DNA from: Ralstonia sp.
Lineage (GTDB): Bacteria; Pseudomonadota; Gammaproteobacteria; Burkholderiales; Burkholderiaceae
Assembly (NCBI GenBank): GCA_046537905.1
Contig: JBKHJW010000013.1
Span: forward strand, 36,466-68,465
Length of the DNA: 32,000 bases
Direction: 5' to 3'
The position numbers were made by a program, and so were the translations under genes. Positions within the stretch are counted from its first letter, which is position 1. The number at the start of each line of letters is the position of its first letter. The notes below the pieces were generated by a model. That model saw nothing but the letters and a program-made list of their open reading frames with translations, was not told the origin of the DNA and made no database searches. Shown here in pieces: positions 10,268-25,066 of the stretch.

Positions 10268-10375
10268 TGGGTGCCAGCAGTCGCCGCAGCTGGGCGTCGG
10301 ATCTGTAATCCGCGCGGAATATGACTGCAACGGCCGCGTCGCGCGCGGCCGGCATCCAGGAACAATGCGAGGGGC

Positions 10376-11080: not shown

Positions 11081-11120
11081 TGTAAACCTGCCGACCGCCG
11101 ATTGCCGATTGCTGACGCCC

Positions 11121-11153
11121 CAAAAGACAACGGACCCCGAAGGGTCCGTTTGT
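11121..11153 (-). terminator. Rho-independent terminator of the HiPIP gene
   Basis: The minus strand reads ACAAACGGACCC-TTCG-GGGTCCGTTGT followed by CTTTTG, about 20 nt downstream of the stop at 11175. Confidence 0.75.
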
Positions 11154-11174
11154 CATGGTGAGGCTAGGGGGCGC

Positions 11175-11486
11175 TTAGGCCTTCTTGGCCCAGGCGCTGC
11201 ACCAGCCCTTGTTGGCGACGTCCTTGCCGGCAAACAGCGGGCAGCCGCCCTGGGCCGCCGCGCCACCCTGGTAGAGCGCGCAGTTGCCGCAGTGCTGGTC
11301 GGCTGCGTGCTTCGGATACTTGGCCTTGTCTGCCTTGGTGGTATCGGCCACGTAGCCGAGGGCGACGGCTTGCGGGTCCTTTTCCGAGACCATCGGGTTG
11401 GCCGCGCGTGCCAGGCCCGACATGCCGACGGCGCCCGCAGCGGCCACGATCGGAATGCTCTTCAGGAATTGACGACGATTGGACAT
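11175..11486 (-). CDS. High-potential iron-sulfur protein (HiPIP) with twin-arginine signal peptide (103 aa)
   Basis: A Tat motif (SNRRQFLK) precedes the ...GLARA cleavage region. The mature part has the four-Cys HiPIP pattern (C..C.....C......W C), seen in HCGNCALYQG...GGCPLF.GK.V...GWCSAW. Confidence 0.85.
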   Translation of the reverse strand: MSNRRQFLKSIPIVAAAGAVGMSGLARAANPMVSEKDPQAVALGYVADTTKADKAKYPKHAADQHCGNCALYQGGAAAQGGCPLFAGKDVANKGWCSAWAKKA

Positions 11487-11774
11487 TGCTGATTCCTTTT
11501 GTGGGAGTGTGTTGTGTGGCGTCCTCTGCGTTGCCCGTTCCAGAGAATCGGGTGCGCCCTAGGGGACAGCGGACGGCGTCGGCGCGCCGCTTTTCCGCAG
11601 GTGCATTCTGGCACACCGGCGGCCCTGCGGCATCTGCGCAGCGTCAATGTTCTCCATACCTGGGTGCAGCAATTGCTCACTTCGGCTGGCCGTAGCCCTG
11701 GTAGGGGCATGGGTGAATGGAGCCTGCGTGGCTGATAGATTACGCGCCAATCGAGACCGCCCCCCAACCCCGCC

Positions 11775-12362
11775 ATGACCGACTTTGCCCGCCTGCTGGA
11801 AGGCTATCTGCACGCCAAGGATGACAATTTGCCGCACGTGATCGACGGCGTCTTCGCGCCCGATGCACGGCTGACCTTTTCGCTCGCCACGCAGAACATC
11901 GCCTTCCCGCCGCAGACCGACGGCGCCGCCGCCATCGCCAAGACGCTGGTGACCGACTTCGGCCAGCAGTACCGCCGTTGCCGGACGTACTACGTCACGC
12001 GGCGTGGCGACTTGCCCGACGCGCCAGAACGGGGCGACATGCCGGTCGCCCTGGCGCCGATGCCGTGGCTGGTGGTGATGCAGGAGCGGAGCACGGGGGC
12101 GCTGCGCGTTGGCCATGGCGTCTACCGCTGGACGTTCGCTCGCGCGGGCAAGGATTGGCGCGTGAGCGCGCTGCACATCCATATCGCGCGCATGGACGTC
12201 ATCGACAACGCGCGTGCCGATGCCGGATGCGCGGCCATCCAGCAGGCGTTGCCGTATCCGTGGGTGGATGCCGCGGTGCTGCGCACGACGGTGGCGCGGC
12301 TGGCGGCGGAGGATGCCGGCCTACGCTGGCTCGCTCCCTTCGGCGAGCCGGCGCGGGACTGA
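11775..12362 (+). CDS. Hypothetical protein, possibly NTF2/SnoaL-like fold (195 aa)
   Basis: This is a clean ORF with high GC3 and ATG at 11775. The fold guess rests only on size and the alternating pattern around GVYRWTFARAGKDWRVSALHIHIARMD. Confidence 0.45.
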   Translation: MTDFARLLEGYLHAKDDNLPHVIDGVFAPDARLTFSLATQNIAFPPQTDGAAAIAKTLVTDFGQQYRRCRTYYVTRRGDLPDAPERGDMPVALAPMPWLVVMQERSTGALRVGHGVYRWTFARAGKDWRVSALHIHIARMDVIDNARADAGCAAIQQALPYPWVDAAVLRTTVARLAAEDAGLRWLAPFGEPARD

Positions 12363-12822
12363 GTGCGGCCGTTGCCGTGCCGGTGGCAGCGTCGGCCTGA
12401 CCATCGTGATAACCCTGATTTCGTGCGATTGACGCTCAAGATCGAACGATCATCGCGCGACGCACGCACGGCTGCGATTGTTCCGGTGCGTCACGGCCTC
12501 TAAGCTCCCGGTCACAACGACAGGACACCTGCGCATGACCGGCGCGCCCTCGATCGACGTTCGTGCGCGCGCCGATGCGCGGCCGTTCGGCCGCTTCGCA
12601 CCGCGGGTGCGCTCGGCTTTTGCGTGATCGCGCGGGGGCGGCCTCGACACCGCCATCATGGCTTCATCGCGGCGGAGATGCCGCGTGGGTGAGGCATCCG
12701 CAAGGCCAGCCTGGGCTCGGCGCGCTCGCGATCTTGGTCACAGGTCGCGACACGCGCGCGCACGTGCCCGTGGTACAAAGCGTGGTGTCCTAGTCCCGAG
12801 TCACCGCCACAGGAGTTCACGC

Positions 12823-13908
12823 ATGGGCCGCGATGCCGACCTGCCGTTCAAGACCGCCGGCCTGGAGTTCGTCGAGTTCGCCACGCAAGACCCGGCCGGG
12901 CTTGCGCGGATGCTCACGGCGCTCGGCTTCAAGGCCATTGCGCGGCATGTCAGCAAGGAGGTCACGCTGTACCGGCAGGGCGATATGAACTTCCTCGTCA
13001 ACACGGAAGCCGATTCGTTCGCGCATCGCTGGGCCGAGGAATACGGCGTGGGTATCTGCGCGATCGGCATCCGCGTGGGCGATGCGCAACGCGCCTACGA
13101 CCGCGCCGTCGAGCTGGGCGCGTGGCCGGCCGAGGGCGAGCCGATCGGCCCGGCTGAGTTGGTGATCCCCGCCATCCAGGGCGTGGGCGACACGCACCTG
13201 TACTTCGTCGACCGCTGGCGCGGCAAGCACGGCGCCCGTGGCGGCCTGGGCGATATCTCGATCTACGACATCGACTTCCGCCCGCTCGACCCGGCCACCG
13301 CACACGAAGACTGGCACCACGCCGGCGCCGGCCTGGCGCGGGTCGACCACCTCACGCAGACCGTTGGCGCCGGCCGGCTGCAGGACTGGATCGATTTCTA
13401 CCGAAACCAGCTCGGCTTTCGCGAGATTCACGAGCTGCACACCAACTGGCACGTGGCGGCGGATTCGCGGGTGATGGTGTCGTCGTGCGGCACCATCCGC
13501 ATCCCCCTTTATGAAGAGGGCACGCACCGCGCCCACCTGATGCATGCCTACCTGCCCGACCACCCCGGCGAGGGCGTGCAGCACATCGCGCTGGCCACCG
13601 ACGACATCCTGCGCACGGCCGCCGCGCTGGCCGCCAACGGCCTCATCTTCGTCGAGCCGCCGCCGCGCTATTACGACACCGTCGACGCGCGCCTGCCCGG
13701 CCACGGGCTGGACCTCGACGCGCTGCAGCGCTACGGCATCCTCGTCGACGGGGAGATCCTGGACGGCGTGCCCAAGCTGTTCCTGCAGACCTTCGTCAGG
13801 CGGCATCCGGGCGAGATCTTTTTTGAGATCGTCCAGCGGCGCGGGCACCACGGGTTTGGGGAAGGGAATCTGGCGGTGCTGACGGCCGCAGGCAACGCTA
13901 CGGCCTAG
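12823..13908 (+). CDS. hppD: 4-hydroxyphenylpyruvate dioxygenase family protein (361 aa)
   Basis: ATG 12823 follows AGGAG (12811-12815). The protein is colinear with Pseudomonas HppD as I recall it: GLEFVEFA, LYRQG..NFL.N, RAY.RA.ELGA, IPAI.G.G...LY..DR, IYDIDF, VDHLT, IRIPL.EE, GEG.QH.A..TDD, PP..YY......RLP.HG, GIL.DG, LLQ.F, FFE..QR.G..GFGEGN. The tracked ORF start at 12658 is an unsupported extension. Confidence 0.85.
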   Translation: MGRDADLPFKTAGLEFVEFATQDPAGLARMLTALGFKAIARHVSKEVTLYRQGDMNFLVNTEADSFAHRWAEEYGVGICAIGIRVGDAQRAYDRAVELGAWPAEGEPIGPAELVIPAIQGVGDTHLYFVDRWRGKHGARGGLGDISIYDIDFRPLDPATAHEDWHHAGAGLARVDHLTQTVGAGRLQDWIDFYRNQLGFREIHELHTNWHVAADSRVMVSSCGTIRIPLYEEGTHRAHLMHAYLPDHPGEGVQHIALATDDILRTAAALAANGLIFVEPPPRYYDTVDARLPGHGLDLDALQRYGILVDGEILDGVPKLFLQTFVRRHPGEIFFEIVQRRGHHGFGEGNLAVLTAAGNATA

Positions 13909-13918
13909 CCATGTGAGG

Positions 13919-13975
13919 GTGGCGCGCCCGGCTGGGATCGAACCAGCAACCCCTGCCTTCGGAGGGCAGTACTCT
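13919..13975. repeat. attL: 57-bp copy of the 3' part of tRNA-Arg (displaced or duplicated att core)
   Basis: Identical to 22105-22161 (gtggcgcgcccggctgggatcgaaccagcaacccctgccttcggagggcagtactct). It lacks the tRNA 5' acceptor and D arm, so it is not a functional tRNA. Confidence 0.9.
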
Positions 13976-13991
13976 CTGCGCCGACGACGAC

Positions 13992-14864
13992 TCAGAATGG
14001 CAGTATCCGCTGCACTGCGCCGCGTAACTGCTCTGGTGCAAGATGCGCATAGCGCTCTGTTACCGTCACCGACGAGTGCCCTAGCAAATCTCTAACCGTC
14101 TGCAACGGCGTACCTGCCATCACAAGCCAACTAGCGCAGGTATGCCGCATATCGTGGATACGGAAATCCACGATCCCCGCCCTCCGGCACGCCGCCGAAA
14201 ACCCCGTCTGAAACGTTGTGATCCGCCGCCCATCCTGGGTGGCGAAAACCCACGGACTGCCCGGCGCATGGCTGCCACGCCACGCCAACAGATCCCGCAA
14301 TGCATCGACGGCAGCATCATTGAGCGGAACCGACCGCCGCCGCCCGGACTTTGTGTGCTCCGCGTGTAGCGTCAACAGCCGTCGATCCAGGCTGACTCGC
14401 GCCCATTCCAGTTTAATTAACTCTGATTTCCGGCATCCTGTATTCAGTGCTAGTCGAATGAACGCGGGAAGGTGAGGGCGACGTGCGTAACGTTCAGCAG
14501 CCTCACATAATGCCGACGCCTCTACCGTAGAAATCCAGCGTACACGACCCTCTGATTCGCCAATACCAAGGCGTAGCGCGGGATTGGCGAGATCAGGGCG
14601 ATCATGCTCGATACGCACGTAGTTGATCGCCGCCGACAACAGCTTCAGCTCACGATTCACGGTGGCAGGCTTGACGCCATCCACAACACGACGCTCGACG
14701 TAAGCGCGCACGTGCGCCCGCTTTAGATCAACTATCAGCATCCCACCAAAGTGGGGTTGTAATCGCTGAAGCGAATAATAATCGCGTTGTCTACTACGAT
14801 GCACGACCGACGACATATAGATGCCAATGACATCCTCAAACGTCATACTCCCCGCCTGCTGCAT
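13992..14864 (-). CDS. int: Tyrosine-type site-specific integrase (290 aa)
   Basis: The catalytic signature is readable: Arg in LALNTGCRKSEL, HDMRHTCASW (H-x-x-R), LLGHSSVTVTERYAHL (His and the nucleophilic Tyr). The gene sits 17 nt from attL. Confidence 0.9.
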   Translation of the reverse strand: MQQAGSMTFEDVIGIYMSSVVHRSRQRDYYSLQRLQPHFGGMLIVDLKRAHVRAYVERRVVDGVKPATVNRELKLLSAAINYVRIEHDRPDLANPALRLGIGESEGRVRWISTVEASALCEAAERYARRPHLPAFIRLALNTGCRKSELIKLEWARVSLDRRLLTLHAEHTKSGRRRSVPLNDAAVDALRDLLAWRGSHAPGSPWVFATQDGRRITTFQTGFSAACRRAGIVDFRIHDMRHTCASWLVMAGTPLQTVRDLLGHSSVTVTERYAHLAPEQLRGAVQRILPF

Positions 14865-14920
14865 TATCTTTGGTGTAGTTTACCGCTGCAATTAACAGGC
14901 CGCCACGGCAGGGGAGAAAC

Positions 14921-15592
14921 ATGGGGGTAGAAGATCGCAATTGGTACCACGACCGTAAAAAACAGAAGCCAATCAATCCTGACTGGCAAAGGGAATACAA
15001 CCGCTGGTACGGCAAGCCGAACACGCCCACACCCAAGAAACCCGGCATGCACTGGACGCTAACGCTGGCGTGCTGGGCCACGTTCTTTCTTGCGGTGTAC
15101 ATCGGCGTCAGATACATCATGAGCTTCAAGGTACCGGCCCCGAGCGCACCAATTCAGCCCGCGCCGCCTATCGTCGAAAACACCCCGCAGCGACCGGCAC
15201 AACCGGTTCGACAACCGCAACCAGAAATCGTGCTTTACAAGTGCGAGGACCACGGCCAAACAACGTACTCCAAAACGCCGTGCCCCGAGCCTGTCCGCAT
15301 CATCACCACCCAACCAGAACCGCCAGCGCAAACACAACCACCATCGCAGCACGTTGACCCGAACGCAGAGCTAGCACGTCAGTGGGATGCACGTATGGCC
15401 CAGCGTGACCGCGACATTGCCGCTGAACAAAGCGCACTACAGGCGCAGACCAATGCGACAAACACACAGTGCAATCAGCTACGCAGCAACCTGCTCAGCA
15501 TCCAGCGAATGCCGCTGACGTATCAACAAACTAGTCCGTGGCGAGAACAGATGAACGGCATCCGCAGCCAGATGAACCAACTGCACTGCTAA
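14921..15592 (+). CDS. Membrane-anchored DUF4124-like protein with Pro-rich linker and C-terminal coiled coil (prophage accessory gene, 223 aa)
   Basis: GGGGAG lies 4 nt before ATG 14921. One TM segment is present (WTLTLACWATFFLAVYIGVRYI), and the LYKCEDHGQTTYSKTPCP motif resembles the DUF4124 core (Y.w.D..G...ys..pP). The gene is on the strand opposite the phage core genes. Confidence 0.6.
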   Translation: MGVEDRNWYHDRKKQKPINPDWQREYNRWYGKPNTPTPKKPGMHWTLTLACWATFFLAVYIGVRYIMSFKVPAPSAPIQPAPPIVENTPQRPAQPVRQPQPEIVLYKCEDHGQTTYSKTPCPEPVRIITTQPEPPAQTQPPSQHVDPNAELARQWDARMAQRDRDIAAEQSALQAQTNATNTQCNQLRSNLLSIQRMPLTYQQTSPWREQMNGIRSQMNQLHC

Positions 15593-16647
15593 TGCAAAGA
15601 CGGCGGATCATCGTCGTCAATCACCTCCGGAGGGTCAAGCTCAAAGCCATCCTCCGCCAGCGAGAACCAGAAGCACTTACGACCATGCGACACGTAGGTG
15701 CTCATCCCCTGCCAATTCGCGCCGCTCTCCACCAGATAGCGCATCGTCGCATCCATGCCAGCGCGAAACGAGCCTTCATCATCCTCAGAGCGAAACTGCC
15801 CAATGGTCTCCCGCTCCGGAATCTCGATACCCTTGGATGACCAGTAACGCCGCTCATTGAGCTTGTGCTGCGTTCCTTTGGTGATGTACTTGCTCAGGTA
15901 CGCAGCAACGCGATGGACACCCACAATGCGCCTACGGCCCTTGCTCTTCGGCCCCTGAATATCGACGTTGCCGTTACCCTTGCCGACCACCGCATGCCAT
16001 GCGTCGCGTAGCGCAATCGCATCACGCCAACCGCGCACGCCGACATGGATATGGATGCCTCCGCTCTTGTGGTGTTCGATCACGGCAACGAAGTGAAACG
16101 CATCGCCCTCGCGCACCAGCCGGGAGTCTTTGCGAACGCGACGCACGAAGGCTTTCCAGTCCCTCGCAGCGCGCTCACGATCAGCCATGAGGCCGCGATA
16201 CGTCAACGTCAGCAGATGATCGAGACGAGCGGTTTTAGCCAACTCGCGCACCTTGCGCCGCGCACGCTGCATAGCGCTCGCCATCGACTTTTCCTGATCC
16301 TCTGACTTGCCACGCTCCGATTTCGGCTTCGGCACGACGATGCCGAATTTCCCTTCAAACGGGTTGCCGTAGTGACGACGAACCGGATAGCCGACTACCT
16401 CGCGTTGCCCATCCGGCCAGCGCCGCACACGGACGATGATGTCATCACGGATGGACTCTTCGCCAAAGCCCGCCTGTTCACGCAAATCACGCTTGCGTTG
16501 TTGATACGCGAGGGCCGAAAGGTCGGAATCCTTGACGCCCATTTGTTGCAGTTGCTCTGCCGACAAATGGAACTGACGATTGTCATAGCTTTGTGCTATT
16601 GTGGTTTGCAGCATGACCGATGCCTGAACGTTTCCGGTTGTGCACAC
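15589..16647 (-). CDS. Rolling-circle replication initiator (phage pII-like Rep, HUH class)
   Basis: An HUH-type motif is present (GGIHIHVGVRGW), with a downstream catalytic Tyr block (AAYLSKYITKG). Size and position next to the hairpin-rich intergenic region fit a Rep. The start is uncertain (GTG 16647 or ATG 16614). Confidence 0.7.
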   Translation of the reverse strand: MCTTGNVQASVMLQTTIAQSYDNRQFHLSAEQLQQMGVKDSDLSALAYQQRKRDLREQAGFGEESIRDDIIVRVRRWPDGQREVVGYPVRRHYGNPFEGKFGIVVPKPKSERGKSEDQEKSMASAMQRARRKVRELAKTARLDHLLTLTYRGLMADRERAARDWKAFVRRVRKDSRLVREGDAFHFVAVIEHHKSGGIHIHVGVRGWRDAIALRDAWHAVVGKGNGNVDIQGPKSKGRRRIVGVHRVAAYLSKYITKGTQHKLNERRYWSSKGIEIPERETIGQFRSEDDEGSFRAGMDATMRYLVESGANWQGMSTYVSHGRKCFWFSLAEDGFELDPPEVIDDDDPPSLH

Positions 16648-16957
16648 GCCCTGGGAGGTTTGCAGACCTCGCCGGGGCTTTCTTTTTTGGACCCTTCAAT
16701 GTTGGTCCACTACCCGCAGAGCCTTGTATTTGCTGGCTCGGTTCTCAAGTGTTAGTGATTCAAGTCTAGGGGCGCGCTTCGCGCGCCCCGCCTGCCGTCG
16801 CTGCGCTCCGTCACGCGTGTCGCGCGAAGCGTCTGCCCATCCCCACCTACCACCCACCTCTACAAAACGCGCTAACGGCCCGCCCGACGCATCCAAAGAC
16901 CAGATTGAGGCCTTCGGCCTAGAGGCGCTCGCCGCGCGGCCTCTCAGCTCGCCCAGC

Positions 16958-17160
16958 AGGGTTGTCACCGTTCCGCTAAGTTCGTCGTCCCTTTCGCGAA
17001 CATAGCGTCGGCTCTGTGGGCTTTCGCGGCATAAACGGCTACCTCCCCACCTCCAAACAAACGGAGGCGGGTCCCCTCCATTTATTCCACGTCCCACAGA
17101 GCCGCCGCTCTCATGTTCGCGGGACGACGAACTCAGCGGAACGGTGACAACAGCAGCCCT
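16958..17160. repeat. Large imperfect inverted repeat (arms ~63 and ~68 nt, loop ~72 nt) in the phage intergenic region: candidate packaging signal/origin hairpin
   Basis: The left arm is agggttgtcaccgttccgctaagttcgtcgtccc...ggctctgtggg (16958-17020). The right arm, cccacagagcc...gggacgacgaactcagcggaacggtgacaac (17093-17160), is its reverse complement apart from a few mismatches and indels. The loop holds a further CCTCC/GGAGG hairpin. Flanking hairpins include GGGGCGCGC-TTC-GCGCGCCCC near 16770-16790. Confidence 0.75.
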
Positions 17161-17230
17161 CGCAGGCTCACCGAGAGAAAGACGCCGGGACTCAGAATCT
17201 AGCGGCCCGGTAACTTTGAAAGGCAAAACC

Positions 17231-17527
17231 ATGGAACAGCTTTCCTTCACCCTGATCGGCGGCCTCTGCACCATGCCTCTGTGGTTTGCACTGCCGCGCC
17301 GTCGCACCATCAAGCGCGGCAAGCTTCCGTTCCGCCCGTGGCAGCAACTCACGCTACGCCTGCCGATCCGCCGCCTCATCCGCGCCGCCTCGCACTTCAT
17401 CTGGACTCGCCCCGATGGCAAGCAATTCGTCTGCCGCACGTTCCGCGCTCTAGTTGCCCGCGTGATGGACTACGACGGGCATCTAATGCAAGGCCTGCTG
17501 CGATCAACAGCACTACGAAAGCGCTAA
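17231..17527 (+). CDS. Small basic hypothetical protein (98 aa), prophage accessory gene on opposite strand
   Basis: The ATG at 17231 is preceded by AAAGG. Third-position G/C bias is strong across the frame. The protein is Arg-rich (MEQLSFTLIGGLCTMPLWFALPRRRTIKRGK...). The first 29 codons of the tracked ORF (from 17144) fall inside the hairpin arm and were dropped. Confidence 0.45.
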   Translation: MEQLSFTLIGGLCTMPLWFALPRRRTIKRGKLPFRPWQQLTLRLPIRRLIRAASHFIWTRPDGKQFVCRTFRALVARVMDYDGHLMQGLLRSTALRKR

Positions 17528-18702
17528 TTACGCGCGATGGACTGCACCGGCTTCGGATGACGAATCAACCCGTCACCACCATAACCGGACCACTCCGCAG
17601 CACCATCACGCACAACCGCCGCTGCTGGCACCGGCTCACGCGACGAATCGACTCCAGACGCTAGAACTTGATCGCGCGCCGCATCCGCAGACGCCACCGG
17701 CGCGACTTCCTGATACGGATCGAACGGCCGATTCGCAAGCCACTGACGCGACTGCATTTGATCGAGGCCCGAATCGGTGCCCTGTTGCGTATACGCACGG
17801 CACCTATCGCCCATGCACACCGCGCCAACAACACGCGGCATCGCCTTGACCTCTCTCAGCGCGCTATATGCAGGAGCACTCTCAGGATGACCCGGCACCA
17901 CTGGAAAAAAGGCCGCAAGCTGCTCCGCTGGATCAGCAGAGCGAACACCGGTAGCAGCAGAAGAAGCCACAGGAGCGCTGGCCGCGCCCGGCGCGCCAGC
18001 CTTTGCAGAAACGTCAGCATCGGGATGCACCTTCTTTTCGACCTGGTGATAGACGCGCCAGATCGCCAGCACCGCAAGCATGATCGCGCCAATCATCACA
18101 ACCATCGCAGGCGGGATGCTGTACTTGCGCTTGATATGCAGGCTGGCGGACTTGTACAGCCCGAATGACGATTTCGGCAGCGACCACTTCTTTTTGATCG
18201 GCGCGGACTTGAAGGCCTCGGGATTGCCGACCTCTGGCCATTCGTACCACCAGCGCCCGAGCAAACCGACATCGCGCAAGTGAACATGCTGACCCACCAG
18301 CTTGCGAATGTGCGAATCGAGAAAGCCCGGTGACTGCGTGATCAGCAGAAACGTGACACCCGTATGCCGCACCGTCTCAAACGCGGCGACGTGATTCGGC
18401 ACGTTGCTAGCCGCCGACCGCACACGAAAGATGCGCTGCGCCTCATCGATGACGATGAGCGACTTCTCAGGAAACGTGAAGTAGGGCAGCGAACGCTGAT
18501 CGGGGTCCTCAGGATCGACACGCATCTCCGTCCATTCCGCAACCGGCGGAAGCGGGATATAGGGCAAACGCAACTCCGGAATGCCCTGCATGAACAGCGG
18601 TCGGCCTTGCTTCACCGCCTCAGCCATCATCTGTACCGCCAACGCGGTCTTGCCACCGCCAGGCGTAGCGGTAATCAGCGTGATAGGTTGCGTCGCACTC
18701 AT
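17524..18702 (-). CDS. Zot-like / pI-like filamentous phage assembly ATPase (392 aa)
   Basis: Walker A (TATPGGGKTA) and Walker B (SLIVIDEAQ) motifs are present, with a central TM segment (AMVVMIGAIMLAVLAIW) as in the Zot/pI family. Its ATG overlaps the stop of the upstream gene (ATGA). Confidence 0.85.
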   Translation of the reverse strand: MSATQPITLITATPGGGKTALAVQMMAEAVKQGRPLFMQGIPELRLPYIPLPPVAEWTEMRVDPEDPDQRSLPYFTFPEKSLIVIDEAQRIFRVRSAASNVPNHVAAFETVRHTGVTFLLITQSPGFLDSHIRKLVGQHVHLRDVGLLGRWWYEWPEVGNPEAFKSAPIKKKWSLPKSSFGLYKSASLHIKRKYSIPPAMVVMIGAIMLAVLAIWRVYHQVEKKVHPDADVSAKAGAPGAASAPVASSAATGVRSADPAEQLAAFFPVVPGHPESAPAYSALREVKAMPRVVGAVCMGDRCRAYTQQGTDSGLDQMQSRQWLANRPFDPYQEVAPVASADAARDQVLASGVDSSREPVPAAAVVRDGAAEWSGYGGDGLIRHPKPVQSIARN

Positions 18703-18974
18703 CCCGTGACCCTCCCGAACCGCTTCAACGTCATCAGCGAAATGCGCGCGACGATACCGCCCGCAATCACGCTCAGCGCCGTGAAAAATCCCGAGATCGC
18801 CAACACCGAAGCAACCGAGCCAGTCAGCCCACCGAGCGAGCCCTTAGCGGCGGAAAACGCGGCACCGACCGCCGCATCGAGCCCGACAAACGTAACCAAC
18901 CCGATACCGATAGAGACCAGCAACTGGCGGGCAAGCGGCCCAATCAGGGCCATCAGAAAAGCAGCAATCGGCAT
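18699..18974 (-). CDS. pVI-like minor coat / DUF2523-like membrane protein (91 aa)
   Basis: This is a small, very hydrophobic protein (MPIAAFLMALIGPLARQLLVSIGIGLVTFVGL...) directly upstream of the Zot-like gene, as in many inoviruses. ATG 18974 overlaps the pIII-like stop codon (TGATG). Confidence 0.65.
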   Translation of the reverse strand: MPIAAFLMALIGPLARQLLVSIGIGLVTFVGLDAAVGAAFSAAKGSLGGLTGSVASVLAISGFFTALSVIAGGIVARISLMTLKRFGRVTG

Positions 18975-20236
18975 CACTCACCCCCGCCTTGCTTTGCGCC
19001 GACCACGATGAACGCAGCCGCCAGCCACCCCATAGCGATCACCAAGGGGCGAATCATCGAACCGAAGCTACACACCGGCGCCCAACTGATCGCGAAGCTA
19101 CGGCCCATCACCGTAAACGGAACATCAGCTGGACAGGACGCGTTATCCGGCCCCCAACCACCATCAGGCGTAATCGCAACATTGATCTGCTGTTCCTTCA
19201 GGTCGGGCGCATCGGGAATCTGCCCCTCCTCGGCACAGCCCATGCGCGTTTCGTGCCCTGTACACGGGTCGTCCTGCTTCTCAGGGGCCGTATTGACCAC
19301 CACCCCGCTCGCGTTGGTCTGCGTGGCGGTATTGCCGTTGGCATCGACCTCCTGTTTAACCACGTTGAGCGTCGCCGTCTTGCCATCTGCATTAGGCGTG
19401 ACGACAGCCACATCGCGATAGCGCTTCCCCGTGATAGGGTCCACATATGGGTCACTCAAGTTGATCGTGATCGGCGTAGGAGAGGGCGCTAACGTGACAG
19501 GCAACGGCACCTTCGCCGCCGACAGATCAGTCGCCACCTGGTCGGGCATCGGATAGATCAACGCCTTGTTCCAATTGGCGTCATTCGCGGCCTGCGTCGC
19601 GGGTGCATTAGGGTTAGGCCCGCACGTACCCGTACCAGAGGAATACACGTAGCCAGCCACACAGCCACCCTGAAACACCGTCACCGTATAGGTGCCGTAT
19701 TGAGGCGCGGCTGGATTCTTCACCGAGACATACACACAGCCACCACCAGAACACGGGCCAACGATACCAACGAACGTATAGCCCGCCGAGGTCACAGCAG
19801 CACCGGGACTATCTCCAACCCCATTCCCGTTGTCGACCAAGTACTGAAAACCGTCAAAGCCCGGATCACTCGCATGCGGACTGGTAGCAGGAGCACACCA
19901 CCCACCAGGCTGCAAGCACTGCTGAATCCCAGCCTGCAACAGGTATTGCAGGATGGCGCTGGTCGCAAGGCCAACGGGATTCAAGCGGATCGCCGCCAGC
20001 CCAACGCTCGCCGCAGTCGAACCGAGCCGCGCAGTCGCCGGAATCTTCGCAACAACACCAGCGACGCGAGCCTCCATCTCCACAGCTGCCGCCCCACCGT
20101 TGATCGTGGTCGCACCAACCGTAGCCCAACCGCCCGAAACCGTGCCGATCGGCGGCACCGGGTAGACCGGAATCGTCGAAGCAAACGCGCTATTAAACGT
20201 CACCACTAACGCAAATACAGCGAGCATCAACCGCAT
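18974..20236 (-). CDS. pIII-like adsorption / minor coat protein (420 aa)
   Basis: An N-terminal signal peptide (MRLMLAVFALVVTFNSAFA) and a C-terminal membrane anchor (PLVIAMGWLAAAFIVVGA) are present. Gly/Pro/Thr-rich linkers and the position between the coat and pVI-like genes support the call. ATG 20236 overlaps the upstream stop (TGATG). Confidence 0.65.
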   Translation of the reverse strand: MRLMLAVFALVVTFNSAFASTIPVYPVPPIGTVSGGWATVGATTINGGAAAVEMEARVAGVVAKIPATARLGSTAASVGLAAIRLNPVGLATSAILQYLLQAGIQQCLQPGGWCAPATSPHASDPGFDGFQYLVDNGNGVGDSPGAAVTSAGYTFVGIVGPCSGGGCVYVSVKNPAAPQYGTYTVTVFQGGCVAGYVYSSGTGTCGPNPNAPATQAANDANWNKALIYPMPDQVATDLSAAKVPLPVTLAPSPTPITINLSDPYVDPITGKRYRDVAVVTPNADGKTATLNVVKQEVDANGNTATQTNASGVVVNTAPEKQDDPCTGHETRMGCAEEGQIPDAPDLKEQQINVAITPDGGWGPDNASCPADVPFTVMGRSFAISWAPVCSFGSMIRPLVIAMGWLAAAFIVVGAKQGGGE

Positions 20237-20328
20237 CACTCACCCCCACCGCTCGAGAAAAAAATAACGGCGGCCGGAAGGACCACCGCCAAGAACCCTG
20301 CCCAGGTCCAGAAATCAGTTGCGAGCAT
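20236..20328 (-). CDS. 30-aa hydrophobic peptide (pVII/pIX-like minor coat candidate), absent from the ORF track
   Basis: My translation of the minus strand is MLATDFWTWAGFLAVVLPAAVIFFSSGGGE. Its ATG overlaps the stop of the 110-aa ORF (TGATG), and its stop overlaps the pIII-like ATG (TGATG). Confidence 0.5.
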   Translation of the reverse strand: MLATDFWTWAGFLAVVLPAAVIFFSSGGGE

Positions 20329-20660
20329 CACAGCCCCCTACGCAACGCCACCACCGCCCACGCGGCCACCATCGCCGCCACAACGCCCCAGCCAACGGTC
20401 ATGCCGTCCGTGAACTGCGCAGTCGTGTCGCACACCGGGAACGACAGCGAAGGCGCGGCAGCATCCGCCAACTGCGTCACAGCGCCGTCTTGCGCGATAA
20501 CAGAACGACGAACGACCCACGCACCGGAGGACTGCACAAACTCCGATACGTAGGTCGTCTGTCCCACGCTTTGACCGATCGGGGCCGCGCTATACACCGC
20601 GTCCGTCGCTTCCGCGTTGGAGGAGAAGCAACGAGCGCCAACCAGCGCCCCCGAGGCCAT
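20328..20660 (-). CDS. Hypothetical phage structural-module protein with C-terminal TM anchor (110 aa)
   Basis: This ORF has a C-terminal hydrophobic segment (GWGVVAAMVAAWAVVAL) followed by RRGL. Its ATG overlaps the major-coat stop (TAATG). Confidence 0.5.
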   Translation of the reverse strand: MASGALVGARCFSSNAEATDAVYSAAPIGQSVGQTTYVSEFVQSSGAWVVRRSVIAQDGAVTQLADAAAPSLSFPVCDTTAQFTDGMTVGWGVVAAMVAAWAVVALRRGL

Positions 20661-20845
20661 TACAGCGCCTTGCGCAACATCTTGAACGCGAAGATGCCGA
20701 CGATCACCACGAGCACCGCAGCGCCCACGGTTGCGGCATCCGTACCAGCGCCGGTCAGGGCCGTGGTAACGGACGGATCGACGGCAGCATTCGCGGCAAC
20801 AGCACCGCCCAGCGAAGCCAGACCAACAGCGATTTTCTTGAGCAT
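20660..20845 (-). CDS. Major coat protein (g8p-like, 61-aa precursor)
   Basis: ATG 20845 follows GGAGG. A signal peptide MLKKIAVGLASLGGAVAANA is present. The mature ~41-aa peptide has an acidic N-terminus (AVDPS..), a hydrophobic core (AAVLVVIVGIFAF) and a basic C-terminus (KMLRKAL), the classic inovirus g8p layout. Confidence 0.8.
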   Translation of the reverse strand: MLKKIAVGLASLGGAVAANAAVDPSVTTALTGAGTDAATVGAAVLVVIVGIFAFKMLRKAL

Positions 20846-20909
20846 GGTTTCCTCCATATCGAGAGGTTGAGAAAAGCCGCCGCGTTGCTCACCGCGACGA
20901 CCAGGGAAC

Positions 20910-21050
20910 TTAGAGACGAAGCCAATCGGCAAGAGCACGCAGGCGTCGCGAACGCTTGGCGGCGGTCATATACGGGCCAGCGAAGCGCTTGCGATCCAAA
21001 CGGCGCGCTGCCCAACGGCAGCCGATGTAGGAGAGAAAGGGGAGCAGCAT
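20910..21050 (-). CDS. Small hypothetical phage protein (46 aa)
   Basis: MLLPFLSYIGCRWAARRLDRKRFAGPYMTAAKRSRRLRALADWLRL. Its ATG overlaps the stop of the upstream 60-aa ORF (TGATG). The call rests only on coupling and position. Confidence 0.35.
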   Translation of the reverse strand: MLLPFLSYIGCRWAARRLDRKRFAGPYMTAAKRSRRLRALADWLRL

Positions 21051-21232
21051 CACGACCTCCGAATACGCTTGATGCCCACTGCGTTGCAGTGAAGAACGCG
21101 AAGGCGCTGCGCCGCAGGCTTGTTCCAACACGCTTCGATCGAAGCGACCAGCGCAAGCACCACGCGACGAATCTGCGCACCGTGCCGATGGCCAGCACCG
21201 CCGAAAAGGTCAAGCTGCCTGTGATCGCGCAT
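21050..21232 (-). CDS. Small hypothetical phage protein (60 aa)
   Basis: A tracked ORF (MRDHRQLDLFGGAGHRHGAQIRRVVLALVASIEACWNK...) located between the g5p-like and coat genes. It competes with an overlapping 160-aa ORF in another frame, which I consider less likely. Confidence 0.35.
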   Translation of the reverse strand: MRDHRQLDLFGGAGHRHGAQIRRVVLALVASIEACWNKPAAQRLRVLHCNAVGIKRIRRS

Positions 21233-21277
21233 CGCATCCCCCGTTAACTGAAAAAGCCCGCCGCAGCGGACTCTCGA

Positions 21278-21616
21278 TTACAGCGCAGCAGCCTGCGCCT
21301 TCGGTGCGTTCGCGGGCGGACGAACCTGCTGCTCAACGGGAACCAGATCGACCACGCGCAACGTCAACTTGCCTTCGAACTGACCAAGGCCAATCGTCGC
21401 TTCGAACTTACCCGGGCGAACCTTGCCGTTCAGATGCTTCGGCAGCATCACCATGCCGGGCATCGTCTCGCTCATGACCTGACCATCAGATGTCGTGTAC
21501 TCAGTGGTCGTCATGCACGCGCACTCTTCCATGTGGTACGGCTGCCCGTTCTTCTTCGATGTGCCTTCACGGACGGTGATGGCGTGGATGTCGACAACAA
21601 CGCGGTTCTTCTGCAT
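21278..21616 (-). CDS. g5p-like ssDNA-binding protein candidate (112 aa)
   Basis: This is the first gene of the minus-strand structural operon. Its size is typical, its beta-rich sequence includes VVVDIHAITVREGTSKKNGQPY, and it has a Pro/Ala-rich tail. The assignment is mainly by position and size. Confidence 0.5.
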   Translation of the reverse strand: MQKNRVVVDIHAITVREGTSKKNGQPYHMEECACMTTTEYTTSDGQVMSETMPGMVMLPKHLNGKVRPGKFEATIGLGQFEGKLTLRVVDLVPVEQQVRPPANAPKAQAAAL

Positions 21617-21693
21617 GGCACTGCTCCTATCAATTTGCCGGTCCTTGCGGATGCCGGGATGGTGTAGAGTTCAGCTACATGACAACTTGCCAA

Positions 21694-21742
21694 CATGGCG
21701 ATATGTCATGTGAAAGATAGTATGCATGGCGATATGTCATGT
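21694..21742. promoter_or_regulatory. Two copies of an 18-bp operator-like site CATGGCGATATGTCATGT, 31 bp apart, in the divergent phage regulatory region
   Basis: The copies are at 21694-21711 and 21725-21742. In the first copy the preceding A completes ACATG...CATGT half-site symmetry, while the second copy is preceded by G. A related half-site ACATGA lies at about 21677. They lie between the g5p-like gene (minus) and the Cro-like gene (plus). Confidence 0.55.
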
Positions 21743-21765
21743 CAAGGCAATCACTAAGGCCGACC

Positions 21766-22170
21766 ATGAAAACATCGATTGATTTCTTCAATGAATTTGT
21801 TGAAGCCAATAAGCCGGCTGGCCAGAAGCGCATCCAAGAGCTATGCGACGTTGACCAGACGACCGTAAGCCACTGGAAGAAGCGAGGCGGAATGACGCCG
21901 GCCGCAACGGTCAAGGTTGGAATGGCCCTCGGGTACCCGAGCGACCTATGCTACCGAATCGCCGCCATCGAAGCAGAGCGCAGTGAGACGGGTCGCAAGT
22001 TCCTTACGACGATGGCGCACGCCGCAGCATCCATCGCAACGATGGCAGTACTCGGTACCGTGGGATTGGTGGTCTCAGGCATCGGCAACAATGCTCAAGC
22101 CCAAGTGGCGCGCCCGGCTGGGATCGAACCAGCAACCCCTGCCTTCGGAGGGCAGTACTCTATCCATTGA
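21766..22170 (+). CDS. Cro/YdaS-like HTH regulator with hydrophobic C-terminal tail (134 aa in the integrated state)
   Basis: The HTH region QKRIQELCDVDQTTVSHWKKRGGMTPAATVKVGMALG resembles the Cro/YdaS pattern (..vsqW.krg.iP). The tail IATMAVLGTVGLVVSGIG is hydrophobic. The last ~21 codons are encoded by the att repeat and tRNA sequence. The ATG at 21739 lies inside operator copy 2, so I prefer ATG 21766. Confidence 0.6.
   Translation: MKTSIDFFNEFVEANKPAGQKRIQELCDVDQTTVSHWKKRGGMTPAATVKVGMALGYPSDLCYRIAAIEAERSETGRKFLTTMAHAAASIATMAVLGTVGLVVSGIGNNAQAQVARPAGIEPATPAFGGQYSIH
22105..22161. repeat. attR: 57-bp att core within the intact tRNA-Arg gene
   Basis: Identical to 13919-13975. It covers tRNA positions 21-76 plus 1 nt beyond the CCA end. 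Confidence 0.9.
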
Positions 22171-22181
22171 GCTACGGGCGC
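22106..22181 (-). tRNA. tRNA-Arg (anticodon CCG), 76 nt with encoded CCA
   Basis: The minus strand folds by hand as follows: acceptor GCGCCCG/CGGGCGC, D arm GCTC-AATGGATA-GAGT, anticodon arm CTGCC-CTCCGAA-GGCAG (anticodon CCG). The variable loop is GGGTT, the T arm is GCTGG-TTCGATC-CCAGC, the discriminator is G, and CCA follows. Confidence 0.95.
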
Positions 22182-22525
22182 ACGTCGGCACAGGACGTGC
22201 CGAAAAGAAGTCGCATAGGATAGCGTGTTTGCCCGCAACCGTCCATCGCGTCCCAAGACAGCGGCCGTTCTGACATGCTTTTGACCTGCGTCGAAAAGTG
22301 ACGCTACGGGCAGACCCGCGTGTCAAACGGCAGGGCATTACGGCTATAATCGCCCGTCATTTGTCAAGAAAATACGGGGACAGGTCTGTTCGGGCCCATG
22401 TGGCGGCATCGCACGGTCATCCTGCCCTCGTTGCGGCCCCCACGCACTGCCGGCGATGCTCGTGATTGCAGCCGGTGGCGCTCAGGCGGCCGCCCTGAGC
22501 GATTCCACCCTCCTGAGAGTTGAGC

Positions 22526-23401
22526 ATGAGCGACGCGCAACACGACGAACACGAGCCCCTGATCAAGACCCCCAAGCAGCTGATCATCGCGGTGGTCGCT
22601 GCCTTTGCCTTTGCCGTTCCCATTCTCATCATCATCCTGCTGGCCAACTATGTCGGGCTGGGCGTCAAGGAAGGCGCGGGTAGCTCCGGCATGTCGGAAG
22701 AGGCCGTCAACGATCGCATCAAGCCGGTCGCGCATCTCGAACTGAAGGACGCGAATGCGCCGCGCGTCTTCAAGACCGGCGAGCAGCTCTACAAGGAAGT
22801 TTGCGCGACCTGCCACGCCGCCGGCATTGCCGGTGCGCCCAAGTTTGGCGATGCCGCCAGCTGGGGCCCGCGTCTGCCGCAGGGGCTGGATGGCCTGACC
22901 AAGGTGGCACTGGCCGGCAAGGGCGGCATGCCCGCACGCGGCGGCACCTCGCCCGACGACGTAAGCGACTACGAACTCGAACGCGCCATCGTCTACATGG
23001 CCAACTCGGGCGGCGCCAAGTTCCAGGAACCGGCTGCGCCGGCGGGTGGTGCGGCCGCCCCGGCGGCATCGGCAACGGAAGCCGCAGCGCCGGCCGCTCC
23101 GGCAGCGGCCGCACCTGCCGCCGCTGCTCCGGCCGCAGCCGCCGCGCCGCAGGCCTCCACCGGCGACGTCGGCAAGAAGGTCTACGACTCGACCTGCCAG
23201 ATGTGCCATGGCGCCGGTGTGGCCGGCGCGCCCAAGTTTGGCGACAAGGCTGCCTGGGCCCCGCGCATCGCAACCGGCAAGACTGCGCTGTACAACAGCG
23301 CGCTGCACGGCAAGAACGCCATGCCGCCCAAGGGCACCTATGCCGGCTCCGACGACGACGTGAAGGCCGCTGTCGACTACATGGCCGCTGCCGCCAAGTA
23401 A
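22526..23401 (+). CDS. Membrane-anchored dihaem c-type cytochrome (cytochrome c5-like domains joined by an Ala/Pro linker, 291 aa)
   Basis: An N-terminal TM anchor (LIIAVVAAFAFAVPILIIILLA) is present. Two haem-binding motifs, CATCH and CQMCH, are each followed by AG.AGAPKFGD and a distal Met (GGMPARG / NAMPPKG). The linker is PAAPAGGAAAPAASATEAAAPAAPAAAAPAAAAPAAAAAP. A TTG at 22520 is an alternative start. Confidence 0.85.
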   Translation: MSDAQHDEHEPLIKTPKQLIIAVVAAFAFAVPILIIILLANYVGLGVKEGAGSSGMSEEAVNDRIKPVAHLELKDANAPRVFKTGEQLYKEVCATCHAAGIAGAPKFGDAASWGPRLPQGLDGLTKVALAGKGGMPARGGTSPDDVSDYELERAIVYMANSGGAKFQEPAAPAGGAAAPAASATEAAAPAAPAAAAPAAAAPAAAAAPQASTGDVGKKVYDSTCQMCHGAGVAGAPKFGDKAAWAPRIATGKTALYNSALHGKNAMPPKGTYAGSDDDVKAAVDYMAAAAK

Positions 23402-23420
23402 GTCGTCTTCGCCTCCCAGG

Positions 23421-23447
23421 AAAGCCCGCCGTGTGCGGGCTTTTTTG
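23421..23447 (+). terminator. Rho-independent terminator of the cytochrome c gene
   Basis: AAAGCCCGC-CGTGT-GCGGGCTTT followed by TTTG, 20 nt after the stop codon. Confidence 0.85.
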
Positions 23448-23559
23448 TTGCTGGCGCTCGCGCGCGACGACGGTGCGGTACGTGGCTTGCTATGCCATGG
23501 ATGAGGTGCGACGCGCGGCGCAGCCGCCGCGCGCCAGATGACGCAAACGGAGGTTGCCC

Positions 23560-23973
23560 ATGCGACATGAACGACTCACGGCGGCCAGCTGCCTGGCCGC
23601 AATGCTGCTGGTTGCAGCGCCCACGGCGCAAGCCGCCGACAACTGGGTAAAGCTCGCCCCGCTGGCCAACAGCGGCGGCACGCTCTATCTGGATCAGGAC
23701 TCTCTCGAACGCAGCGCCGACGGCACTGTGCGCGCCACCTCGCGCGATGCCTACGATGCGCCGCGCCAGCTGTCGAACGGCAAGGCGTACCAGTACGACG
23801 CGCGCACCTCGGTGTACGACTGCAAGAACGCGCGCATCCTGCCCGTCAGCGCGCGGATCGAGGACAGCCAGCATGGCACCGTGCTGGCCAAGACCATCGA
23901 CGGGCCGCGCTGGGAGGCGGTCGTGCCCAATTCCGAGGGCGAGGCGATCCTGCGCGCGGTCTGCAGGAAATAA
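23560..23973 (+). CDS. Small secreted protein, possibly surface-adhesin-E-like fold (137 aa)
   Basis: GGAGG lies 7 nt before ATG 23560. A signal peptide (MRHERLTAASCLAAMLLVAAPTAQA) is present. The mature part has the W..L....G..YLD..S......V.......Y........G......R....YDC pattern I associate with the adhesin-E family. The family assignment is from memory only. Confidence 0.5.
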   Translation: MRHERLTAASCLAAMLLVAAPTAQAADNWVKLAPLANSGGTLYLDQDSLERSADGTVRATSRDAYDAPRQLSNGKAYQYDARTSVYDCKNARILPVSARIEDSQHGTVLAKTIDGPRWEAVVPNSEGEAILRAVCRK

Positions 23974-23986
23974 GGCGCCGTATCGG

Positions 23987-25066
23987 CTATTGCACCGCCG
24001 GCGCAGGGGCCAGATCGACGCGCAGGGTGCCGTCCATGTCCATGCGCGTGGTGCCGCGCGCGGCCGCTTCGCGGTAGTGGTAGAGGTCGAAACGTAGCGG
24101 CTCGCGCGTGGACGAGTCGGTGACCAGCACGCGGCTGTTGGTCACCAGCACGTTGTACATCTTCAGGTCGCCCGACTGGATCCAGATGCGGCTGGCGGCG
24201 GTGGTCGGCGCCGGGGCGCACATCGGCGCGGCTGGGCCGAAGCCGAGCACCAGCCCGTCCGGCGTCACGCGGGCCGTCTTCATCTCGCCCGTGAGCCGTG
24301 GCGGCGGAAACACGGTGGTCTGGTCCAGCACCATGGTGTCGCCGTCGAGCTTGGCGCCGCTGCGATCGAGCGGGGCCAGCCCCGCCAGCTGCAGCCCCAT
24401 CGATTTGAGCAGCCCCAGCGTCTGGACCCCCATTACGCCCAGGTCGGTGGGCGTGTAGACGAGGTAGCGCGACTCCTTGAGCGCCAGCGTGCCGCGCATG
24501 CCGAAGGGCAGCCACACGCCCGGGAAGTGGTTGCGCAGTTTGAGCCCGCCCGCCACGTCGAGCACCCCGTCACCGGGCGTGAGCGACAGCGCATTGAGCG
24601 AGCGCGGTGCGTAGTCCAGCAGGTAGGTGTTGAATAGCGCATCGAGCGAGGCCTTGGGCACCGTCACCTCGCCACCCAGGATGCGGATGTCGAACTGGCT
24701 CGGGTCGTCCATGTCGACGGGCTGGCCGGGCGTGTGGGGCACCAGTTGCGCGGTGAGCTGATGCACGTGGAAGCCGATGTCGCCGGTGATGCGGAAATCG
24801 ACGTTGCGCATCTGCACCACGGGCGGCGCGCTGCGGGAGTCGCGTACGGCGGCATGCTGGTCGCCTGCGACGCGCGTGCCGCCAGCGGTCGGCTCGCAGC
24901 GCTGGCTCCATTGTTGGCGTACGCTGGCCAGGTCTTTGCGTTGCACGGCGGCCATGGGCGGTTCGGCGGCGCGGCACAAGGCGCTGGCCAGCAGGCCGGC
25001 CAGGCCGAGCGTCAGCAGCGCGAGGCGCAACGAGAAAGCGGCGAGGGCAAGGGCGGGGGCGATCAT
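23987..25066 (-). CDS. Exported protein of unknown family, paralog B of a tandem pair (359 aa)
   Basis: A hydrophobic N-terminus is present (MIAPALALAAFSLRLALLTLGLAGLLASALC). The protein is colinear with the upstream paralog (VDFRITGDIGFHVHQL vs VDFRFDGGVGFLVDQL; LDALFNTYLL vs MAALFNTVVF; VFPPPRL vs LFPPPAL; FDLYHYRE vs FNLYRYRE). Its ATG overlaps the upstream stop (ATGA). Confidence 0.65.
   Translation of the reverse strand: MIAPALALAAFSLRLALLTLGLAGLLASALCRAAEPPMAAVQRKDLASVRQQWSQRCEPTAGGTRVAGDQHAAVRDSRSAPPVVQMRNVDFRITGDIGFHVHQLTAQLVPHTPGQPVDMDDPSQFDIRILGGEVTVPKASLDALFNTYLLDYAPRSLNALSLTPGDGVLDVAGGLKLRNHFPGVWLPFGMRGTLALKESRYLVYTPTDLGVMGVQTLGLLKSMGLQLAGLAPLDRSGAKLDGDTMVLDQTTVFPPPRLTGEMKTARVTPDGLVLGFGPAAPMCAPAPTTAASRIWIQSGDLKMYNVLVTNSRVLVTDSSTREPLRFDLYHYREAAARGTTRMDMDGTLRVDLAPAPAVQ

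Follow-up and report, generated by a model that had tools for sequence, protein, structure and literature searches.

Does the 8.2 kb of DNA lying between hppD and a tRNA-Arg gene in a Ralstonia genome belong to a filamentous phage (inovirus) that inserts itself, and has it moved recently? The question is raised by positions 36,466 to 68,465 of contig JBKHJW010000013.1 from Ralstonia sp. (assembly GCA_046537905.1). We call this whole stretch of 32,000 nucleotides (nt) the window, and number positions from its first letter. An earlier inspection of the letters alone (hereafter the sequence-only reading) had proposed that it contains a filamentous prophage with its own integrase, inserted in tRNA-Arg(CCG). 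We found that the prophage is real, complete, and recently mobile, since its free circular form and its empty insertion site are both present in public data. The 8,186-bp unit is very probably a temperate Ralstonia inovirus that recombines its phage attachment site (attP) with tRNA-Arg(CCG) by means of its own tyrosine integrase.

The ends of the element, i.e., the junctions with the host (attL and attR), the bacterial target (attB), and the adjoining integrase gene, are the following:

13919..13975, minus strand: attL, a displaced partial copy of tRNA-Arg(CCG) (nt 21-76 plus 1 base) beside hppD; perfect repeat, single copy in empty-site contigs
13992..14864, minus strand: tyrosine integrase of 290 amino acids (aa), for which gene callers mostly take the 284-aa start at 14846; PF00589 2e-36, phrog_1 4e-71
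22105..22161, minus strand: attR, the repeat copy making up the 3' 56 nt of the intact tRNA; repeat search and ARAGORN
22106..22181, minus strand: intact tRNA-Arg(CCG), the attB target; ARAGORN and Rfam, with an identical tRNA at empty sites

A repeat search of the window returned a single direct repeat of 57 nt (13919-13975 and 22105-22161), 100% identical between its copies, with a spacing of 8186. The sole tRNA of the window is tRNA-Arg(CCG), placed at 22106-22181 on the minus strand by ARAGORN, and Rfam concurs (RF00005, 66.7 bits). The right copy of the repeat comprises nt 21-76 of this tRNA plus one base past its 3' end. The stop codon of hppD is at 13908, leaving a gap of 10 nt to attL, and that of the integrase ends at 13992, 16 nt from the repeat. 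The G+C content is ~0.69 in the flanks against 0.56-0.63 inside the element. Hence, the boundaries drawn in the sequence-only reading hold: a perfect 57-bp repeat brackets 8.2 kb, its right copy is the 3' part of tRNA-Arg, and hppD ends 10 nt before attL.

That reading had also predicted that an empty site would consist of hppD followed by tRNA-Arg. We looked for such sites by exact look-up of the hppD protein in public assemblies. Three contigs (L005, L006, and L011) have an empty attB, with a single copy of the 57 bp and without the 8.2 kb, and they read exactly as predicted, which is the in silico equivalent of a polymerase chain reaction (PCR) with flanking primers. To the left, 6.7-10 kb of flank match the window at 100% identity. 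The 9.8-kb right flank differs from it only by a 6-nt indel, plus one mismatch in L011. Since the same 57 bp are single copy in these three contigs, with identical 60-nt flanks on both sides, the repeat is not due to chance. Other contigs recovered with hppD carry the prophage: three (L008-L010) are 100% identical to the window across it, and a fourth (L007) differs from the window only by a 9-nt intergenic deletion. Both attL and attR are present in the window and in these four contigs, and every long lysogen contig carries a single copy of the prophage.

The attP junction was found indirectly. A regulator gene at the right end of the prophage reads across attR, so that the excised circle must encode a chimeric regulator of 171 aa. 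This protein is encodable only across attP, and its exact look-up showed that it is present in public assemblies. One of the contigs, L075, has 8,216 nt with a terminal overlap of 30 nt, i.e., a circular unit of 8,186 nt, and matches at 100% identity the circle that 13976-22161 is predicted to form. Three further samples (L076-L078) contain the 137-nt attP junction without any change, and attL, attR, and attB are all absent from L075-L078. As L075 runs through the repeat without branching, we infer that it represents a free circular form. The in silico counterpart of an outward-facing PCR was therefore positive in four contigs. Two other kinds of contigs were uninformative on this point. The short Logan contigs with the integrase gene (L001-L004) break off within the repeat, which is expected at k=31. 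The IMG/VR contig L044, considered as a possible circle, ends in Illumina adapter sequence.

We also made some observations on the contigs themselves. In L044 (IMGVR_UViG_3300001911_000002) the last ~60 nt are the adapter (AGATCGGAAGAGCACACGTCTGAACTCCAGTCAC), so the end of the public record is contaminated. The indel in the right flank, at window 22600-22605, is the sole difference between the window and the empty-site contigs over the 9.8 kb, apart from the mismatch of L011. It consists of TGCCTT (an extra Ala-Phe) and falls where the di-haem cytochrome c gene beside the tRNA encodes a hydrophobic N-terminal segment. This gene is called as 289, 291 or 293 aa among contigs. The 10-kb flanks (window 3919-13918 and 22162-32000) are 100% or near identical in many unrelated samples from JGI, ENA, and SRA (L005-L011, L062-L074). 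One Ralstonia clone thus recurs across studies, with and without the prophage, and it may be a laboratory- or reagent-associated one.

To describe what moves, we give the genes of the element, with the open reading frames (ORF) numbered by length where they have no better name:

14921..15592, plus strand: ORF223, DUF4124 membrane protein, homologue of RSM1 ORF13; phrog_21784 5e-92, 62% aa identity to RSM1 ORF13
15589..16614, minus strand: HUH Rep, rolling-circle replication initiator, 341 aa; PF23343 2e-15, phrog_3419 1e-91, 81% aa identity to p12J ORF9, IHIHV and YLSKY motifs
17524..18702, minus strand: pI/Zot-like assembly ATPase, with P-loop ATPGGGKT and one transmembrane segment; PF05707 1.3e-20, phrog_197 5e-72, 64% aa identity to RSS1 ORF9
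18699..18977, minus strand: pVI-like minor coat protein (DUF2523); PF10734 1e-15, 67% aa identity to RSS1 ORF8
18974..20239, minus strand: pIII-like adsorption protein; phrog_13221 3e-119, TspB C-terminal match, 48% aa identity to RSS1 ORF7
20236..20328, minus strand: 30-aa ORF, homologue of RSS1 ORF6; phrog_16542 5e-10, 74% aa identity to RSS1 ORF6
20328..20660, minus strand: ORF110, homologue of RSS1 ORF5, probably a structural protein; phrog_12382 8e-44, 60% aa identity to RSS1 ORF5
20660..20845, minus strand: major coat protein precursor, 61 aa, with signal peptide, acidic N-terminus, hydrophobic core, and basic C-terminus; PF05356 Coat_B 3.2e-14
21050..21232, minus strand: ORF60, homologue of RSM1 ORF3 and RSS1 ORF1; phrog_9247 7e-25, 76% aa identity to RSM1 ORF3
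21278..21616, minus strand: protein binding single-stranded DNA (ssDNA), the g5p analogue; phrog_2866 3e-34, 88% aa identity to p12J ORF1

In phage orientation, i.e., along the minus strand of the window, the order is ssb, ORF60, ORF46, Coat_B, ORF110, the 30-aa ORF, pIII-like, pVI-like, and pI/Zot. Then come an intergenic region of ~0.9 kb, HUH Rep, the reversed ORF223, the tyrosine recombinase, attP, and a reversed XRE-like regulator. The element thus has, by sequence, the marks of an inovirus: a pI/Zot ATPase, a small Coat_B protein, Rep together with an ssDNA-binding protein, and a circular genome outside the chromosome that, at 8,186 nt, lies in the small size range of about 5-15 kb. The coat precursor is called as 61 aa on the circular contig L075 as well. 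Pfam and PHROGs recover the whole gene set that had been read from the letters (Rep, a gene of g5p size, coat, pIII-like, pVI-like, and Zot/pI). The homology check proposed for Rep, the Zot-like protein, and the coat gave 48-88% aa identity of the element's proteins to those of the Ralstonia inoviruses p12J, RSS1, and RSM1. A terminator-like hairpin at 20291-20265 was given little weight, as it overlaps the conserved 30-aa ORF.

The tyrosine recombinase had been placed right beside attL, and it is there with its catalytic residues complete. Alignment with the HP1 integrase shows that R, K, HxxR, H, and Y are all kept (in TGCR, TKSG, HDMRH, GHS, and RYAH). Its best NCBIfam matches are Xer models, but its scores reach only about a quarter of the family cut-offs for XerC/XerD, so that it is a phage integrase rather than a paralogue of the host Xer proteins. 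The identity between attP and the tRNA spans 57 bp in the window phage, and 50-52 bp are conserved in relatives. In the relatives inserted at tRNA-Arg(CCG), mismatches of the repeat copy next to the integrase gene are limited to tRNA nt 21-26. In L083, an episomal relative described below, the attP identity spans only tRNA nt 26-76. Both observations point to a crossover 3' of tRNA nt 26. The usual arrangement for such tRNA identity blocks is a crossover in the anticodon loop and, by analogy, it probably takes place in the anticodon stem-loop here.

These data suggest the following life cycle. The circular replicative form would carry an attP matching tRNA-Arg(CCG) from the anticodon stem to the 3' end, and the integrase, encoded right beside it, would recombine attP with the tRNA gene. 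Integration would regenerate an intact tRNA at attR and leave a 3' pseudo-copy at attL beside hppD, and excision would restore the succession of hppD and tRNA-Arg while releasing the circle. The latter would be replicated as a rolling circle by HUH Rep and the ssDNA-binding protein, recognised by its long hairpin in the intergenic region, and exported by the pI/Zot ATPase via a host secretin, which we invoke because the element encodes no pIV. The coat would be made of the Coat_B protein with minor proteins of pIII-, pVI-, ORF110-, and ORF30-like type. Lysogeny is probably governed by the divergent XRE-type regulator, acting on two 18-nt repeats around the ssb promoter.

Several points weigh against this account. 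Virions, ssDNA, and infectivity are predicted from sequence alone. No pIV secretin is encoded in the element, so that export would need that of the host, and none of its ORFs matches an excisionase family in Pfam, PHROGs, or NCBIfam. A search for the attP junction pattern (14 nt + N57 + 14 nt) in IMG/VR and JGI metagenome contigs gave no match. The empty sites could be siblings that were never lysogenised rather than excisants, and the attP junction could come from tandem copies of the prophage rather than from an excised circle. The last two points make up an alternative in which arrays like those of CTXphi yield the junction without excision, the integrase serves for entry only, and the empty sites are ancestral. 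Filamentous phages of the CTXphi type are indeed produced from tandem arrays, and the junction within a head-to-tail dimer does not differ in sequence from attP. With its low coverage of 1.9, contig L076 is compatible with an array as well as with a circle. However, L075 closes with a k-1 overlap and has no branch to hppD or to the 5' half of the tRNA, which, given how de Bruijn assembly works, would be unexpected if k-mers of attL and attR were present at comparable depth. Besides, there is a single copy in every long lysogen contig, and tyrosine integrases normally catalyse excision too. We therefore regard tandem arrays as an unlikely explanation.

The lack of a recognisable excisionase or secretin would also suit a cryptic remnant, fixed in the lineage and immobile. 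Such a remnant is very hard to reconcile with intact ORFs, perfect repeats, presence and absence of the element in an otherwise identical background, and a 100%-identical circular copy in independent samples. We give just as little credence to the idea that a host recombinase, XerCD or other, integrates the phage and that the phage recombinase is incidental. It has in its favour that the related RSS phages use XerCD at dif (PMC4471427, PMC3816273), and that the integrase is small (284-290 aa) with Xer models as best NCBIfam matches. Yet the site is the 3' half of a tRNA and not dif, the scores for the Xer models are far below their cut-offs, and the integrase gene lies directly beside attP. 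Moreover, Ralstonia and Cupriavidus elements that differ in their other genes keep the same pairing of integrase clade and tRNA-Arg site. A temperate inovirus using its own integrase, which we infer to be the catalyst, is hence the reading we retain.

For annotation, this provides a cleanly bounded and recently active prophage with four documented att junctions, which is rare for an uncultured host. It also provides lysogen and non-lysogen versions of one clone. Filamentous phages alter virulence, motility, and biofilm formation in R. solanacearum and P. aeruginosa, so these versions make a natural pair for comparing phenotypes.

The layout of attP raises a second question, which concerns the regulator and its control region:

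21694..21745, no strand assigned: divergent control region, with a sigma70-like promoter (TTGACA-17-TACTAT, minus strand, towards ssb) between two copies of CATGGCGATATGTCATGT; promoter scan, 10/12 matches
21766..22170, plus strand: XRE-type helix-turn-helix (HTH) regulator, prophage form of 134 aa (143 aa from the upstream ATG at 21739); phrog_638, with an ORF that crosses attR to a stop codon within the tRNA

In the circular form the regulator ORF continues into 13976-14095. Integration thus shortens the protein from 171 to 134 aa, and both forms are in public data. The ORF of the 171-aa form converges with the integrase gene and shares 104 nt with its 3' end. PF01381 is present in homologues, one of which bears the name helix-turn-helix domain-containing protein. 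The predicted structure has a five-helix N-terminal bundle (predicted local distance difference test 89-95), and its Foldseek neighbours are all HTH proteins of Cro/cI/HigA type, but with weak E-values (0.2 or more). The 18-nt motif CATGGCGATATGTCATGT has exactly two copies in the 32 kb, with 0 expected by chance, which makes the repeats candidate operators. A scan of viral contigs with an alignment of the regulator gave no new loci.

The phage shares this layout with others. In its relatives and in L083, attP also lies inside the regulator ORF, and tRNA-encoded ...ARPAGIEPATPAFGGQYSIH forms the end of many homologues in databases, some of them with quite different HTH domains. The circular-form regulators of three relatives (reconstructed) and of L083 (a real episome) all extend into a similar basic tail. 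This conservation is not independent evidence, since the tail is antisense to the conserved 3' end of the integrase gene. In phiRSS0, attP (dif) lies within the repressor ORF13, in its 3' end, and integration cuts the protein from 156 to 130 aa, i.e., by 26 aa (PMC3816273). The regulator of the R. mannitolilytica relative is 48% identical to phiRSS0 ORF13 from end to end, and that of the window phage only 27%. When the tails encoded after attP were compared with that of RSS0 ORF13, shuffling gave p ~0.01-0.03 for three of them and 0.26 for one, which is only suggestive of homology. The 171-aa form ends in ...LPSPTSALANL, with no terminal LAA-type, ssrA-like motif evident, although degrons of another type may be present.

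One might thus ask, as a tentative and rather doubtful idea, whether the phage and its Ralstonia and Cupriavidus relatives sense their own integration state via a regulator spanning attP. The episome would make the 171-aa form with a basic tail of 39 aa, antisense to the end of the integrase gene, and the prophage would make the 134-aa form, whose last residues come from the tRNA. Should stability or activity differ between the two forms, a filamentous ssDNA phage would have an integration-dependent immunity switch. The switch might then be shared by phiRSS0 ORF13 at dif, and Yamada's 2013 hypothesis would become directly testable.

The intergenic region between pI/Zot and Rep has two further features:

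16961..17151, minus strand: long imperfect hairpin, candidate packaging signal or complementary-strand origin; 31-nt inverted-repeat arms, DNA fold
17231..17527, plus strand: ORF98, possible reverse-oriented gene of 98 aa; phrog_19405 1e-55, called as a gene in several contigs

The 191-nt hairpin has a folding energy of -87.8 kcal/mol (z = -14.75, DNA fold). Its region is ~87-88% identical to the intergenic regions of RSM1 and RIP1, and in RIP1 a long hairpin was predicted to be the packaging signal (PMC10975378). The stretch of RSM1 homologous to ORF98 is annotated as non-coding, and ORF98, judging by its family match, may be a real gene overlooked in the annotations of RSM-type phages. A longer ORF of 247 aa (16696-17439) was rejected as a gene because it matches no family and overlaps the hairpin. 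The 9-nt deletion of L007 falls at window 16772-16780, at the edge of a 23-nt inverted repeat (16775-16797 / 16809-16831) located just upstream of Rep, possibly an origin or a regulatory element.

Where did these genes come from? Phage records each cover at most 26% of the element, and nucleotide searches of phages gave matches only to Ralstonia and Burkholderia records. Judged by the protein comparison, the element is a mosaic of Ralstonia inoviruses, with a replication module like that of p12J, structural genes like those of RSS, and accessory parts like those of RSM. In the same comparison the integrase and the regulator have no match in p12J, RSS1 or RSM1. We rejected the assignment of the 88% DNA matches with RSM1 to Rep, as the protein comparison places them at ORF223 and the intergenic region, and the identity of Rep to RSM1 ORF12 is only 36%. 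The tyrosine integrase sits in the slot held in RSM1 by the serine recombinase ORF14, which suggests a swap of the lysogeny cassette.

Inovirus genes accompany the integrase relatives with 56-87% identity (from R. mannitolilytica, an uncultured Ralstonia, Cupriavidus, Burkholderia, and several IMG/VR contigs), and no such link is seen for those with at most 49%. Four of the former, from R. mannitolilytica, an uncultured Ralstonia, Cupriavidus, and an IMG/VR contig, are found at tRNA-Arg(CCG). A collection with one genome per species has only integrase relatives of 84-87% identity. A second phage in episomal configuration, L083 (ENA ERZ23872302 NODE_1429, 6,973 nt), has the same cassette of regulator, attP, and integrase (the latter 84% identical), together with RSS-like structural genes. 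It carries a Rep_trans (PF02486) in place of HUH Rep, which shows that the replication module is exchanged too. The lysogeny cassette is exchanged as a unit on backbones like those of p12J, RSS, and RSM. The proteins of the element are already in NCBI under generic names, from uncultured Ralstonia sp., and IMG/VR has related predicted elements.

Two other loci deserve mention. A metagenome-assembled genome of an uncultured Ralstonia sp. has a 4.3-kb element at the same tRNA-Arg(CCG) (L013:6609-10937). It has the regulator, the ssDNA-binding protein, Rep, an ORF223-like gene, and the integrase (84% identity), and it is without coat, pIII, pVI, and pI genes and without the long hairpin. This is a remnant left by deletion or else a satellite-like mini-element reliant on a helper inovirus. 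In Burkholderia sp. Ax-1724 (L015, 10001-11630), a 61%-identical integrase adjoins inovirus Rep, Zot, and pVI genes. A tRNA-Val(CAC) lies ~700 nt downstream, and there is no tRNA-Arg. Target specificity may have shifted within the integrase clade.

The sequence-only reading had presented an inovirus with a tyrosine integrase and a tRNA target as a less common architecture. This overstated its rarity, and only the novelty relative to characterised Ralstonia inoviruses stands. The element belongs to an already known kind, the tyrosine-integrase inoviruses at tRNA genes. In Pf4 a tyrosine recombinase acts at the 3' 27 bp of tRNA-Gly (PMC4471427, Table 1), and tRNA-Gly, -Met, and -Sec are the sites of Pf phages (cited in PMC10011098). 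A direct repeat in a tRNA or beside an integrase was the canonical att criterion of Roux et al. 2019 for 582 inovirus prophages (PMC6813254). Like Pf4 and Pf5, the window phage is an inovirus with its own tyrosine recombinase, 3' integration in a tRNA, and no pIV secretin. It differs from them in host genus, tRNA-Arg(CCG) target, longer identity of 57 bp, and lack of nucleotide similarity, and no XisF-like excisionase was recognised in it. A filamentous prophage of Cupriavidus taiwanensis STM 6070 is an inovirus of Burkholderiaceae with predicted tRNA integration by a phage-encoded XerD-like tyrosine recombinase. By its description, it differs in tRNA-Met, a pIV secretin, and a pII of pfam05144 type (PMC10011098).

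Within Ralstonia, our literature searches found no inovirus with a tyrosine integrase; the characterised ones use a serine resolvase (RSM, Rs551, RIP1) or XerCD (RSS). With RSM1/RSM3, phiRs551, and RIP1 (Habenivirus type) the window phage shares the host genus, a tRNA target, and the accessory genes ORF223 and ORF60 (62% and 76% to RSM1 ORF13 and ORF3). RSM1 has the order Rep, ORF13, serine recombinase ORF14, attP, and reversed repressor ORF15, so that the accessory order is that of the window phage (PMC4471427). These phages use a resolvase-type serine recombinase and a 13-bp core in tRNA-Ser (PMC4471427, PMC5608472, PMC10975378), in contrast to the tyrosine integrase and 57-bp tRNA-Arg site described here, and RSM1 ORF14 is unmatched in the element. 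The phiRSS0/RSS1 group (Restivirus) has a homologous structural and assembly module, and attP is inside the 3' end of the regulator as in RSS0 ORF13. RSS phages have no integrase of their own and rely on host XerCD at dif (PMC4471427, PMC3816273), whereas the window phage has a tRNA att site and encodes its recombinase. With p12J (Porrectionivirus, R. pickettii) it shares Rep (81%), the ssDNA-binding protein (88%), and the position of Rep after pI at the genome end. Unlike it, the p12J record has no homologue of the tyrosine integrase or of the XRE regulator, and pI is only 31% identical. A tyrosine integrase acting at tRNA-Arg would thus be a third integration strategy of Ralstonia inoviruses, beside serine resolvase at tRNA-Ser and XerCD at dif.

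Two groups of tailed phages complete the comparison. The phiRSA1-type P2-like myoviruses of R. solanacearum use the same tRNA-Arg(CCG), whose 3' 45 nt are the attB of phiRSA1 (PMC5694545), and the RSA1-like prophage YO035_4 occupies the same tRNA-Arg/cytochrome c locus. These are tailed phages with double-stranded DNA, and their integrase is only 34.5% identical. Mycobacteriophage BPs and others of Clusters G, I, N, and P have attP in the repressor ORF beside a tyrosine integrase gene, with a shorter prophage form; in BPs the repressor goes from 136 to 103 aa on integration (PMC4557955). They are tailed actinobacteriophages without sequence relationship to the window phage. Their repressor and integrase genes are co-directional and the long form has an ssrA-like tag, whereas the regulator and integrase genes of the window phage converge with their 104-nt overlap. 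The integration-dependent immunity of BPs would be the functional analogue. It is this layout, with a regulator across attP, that is worth testing, as it offers a concrete system for asking whether filamentous phages couple immunity to integration.

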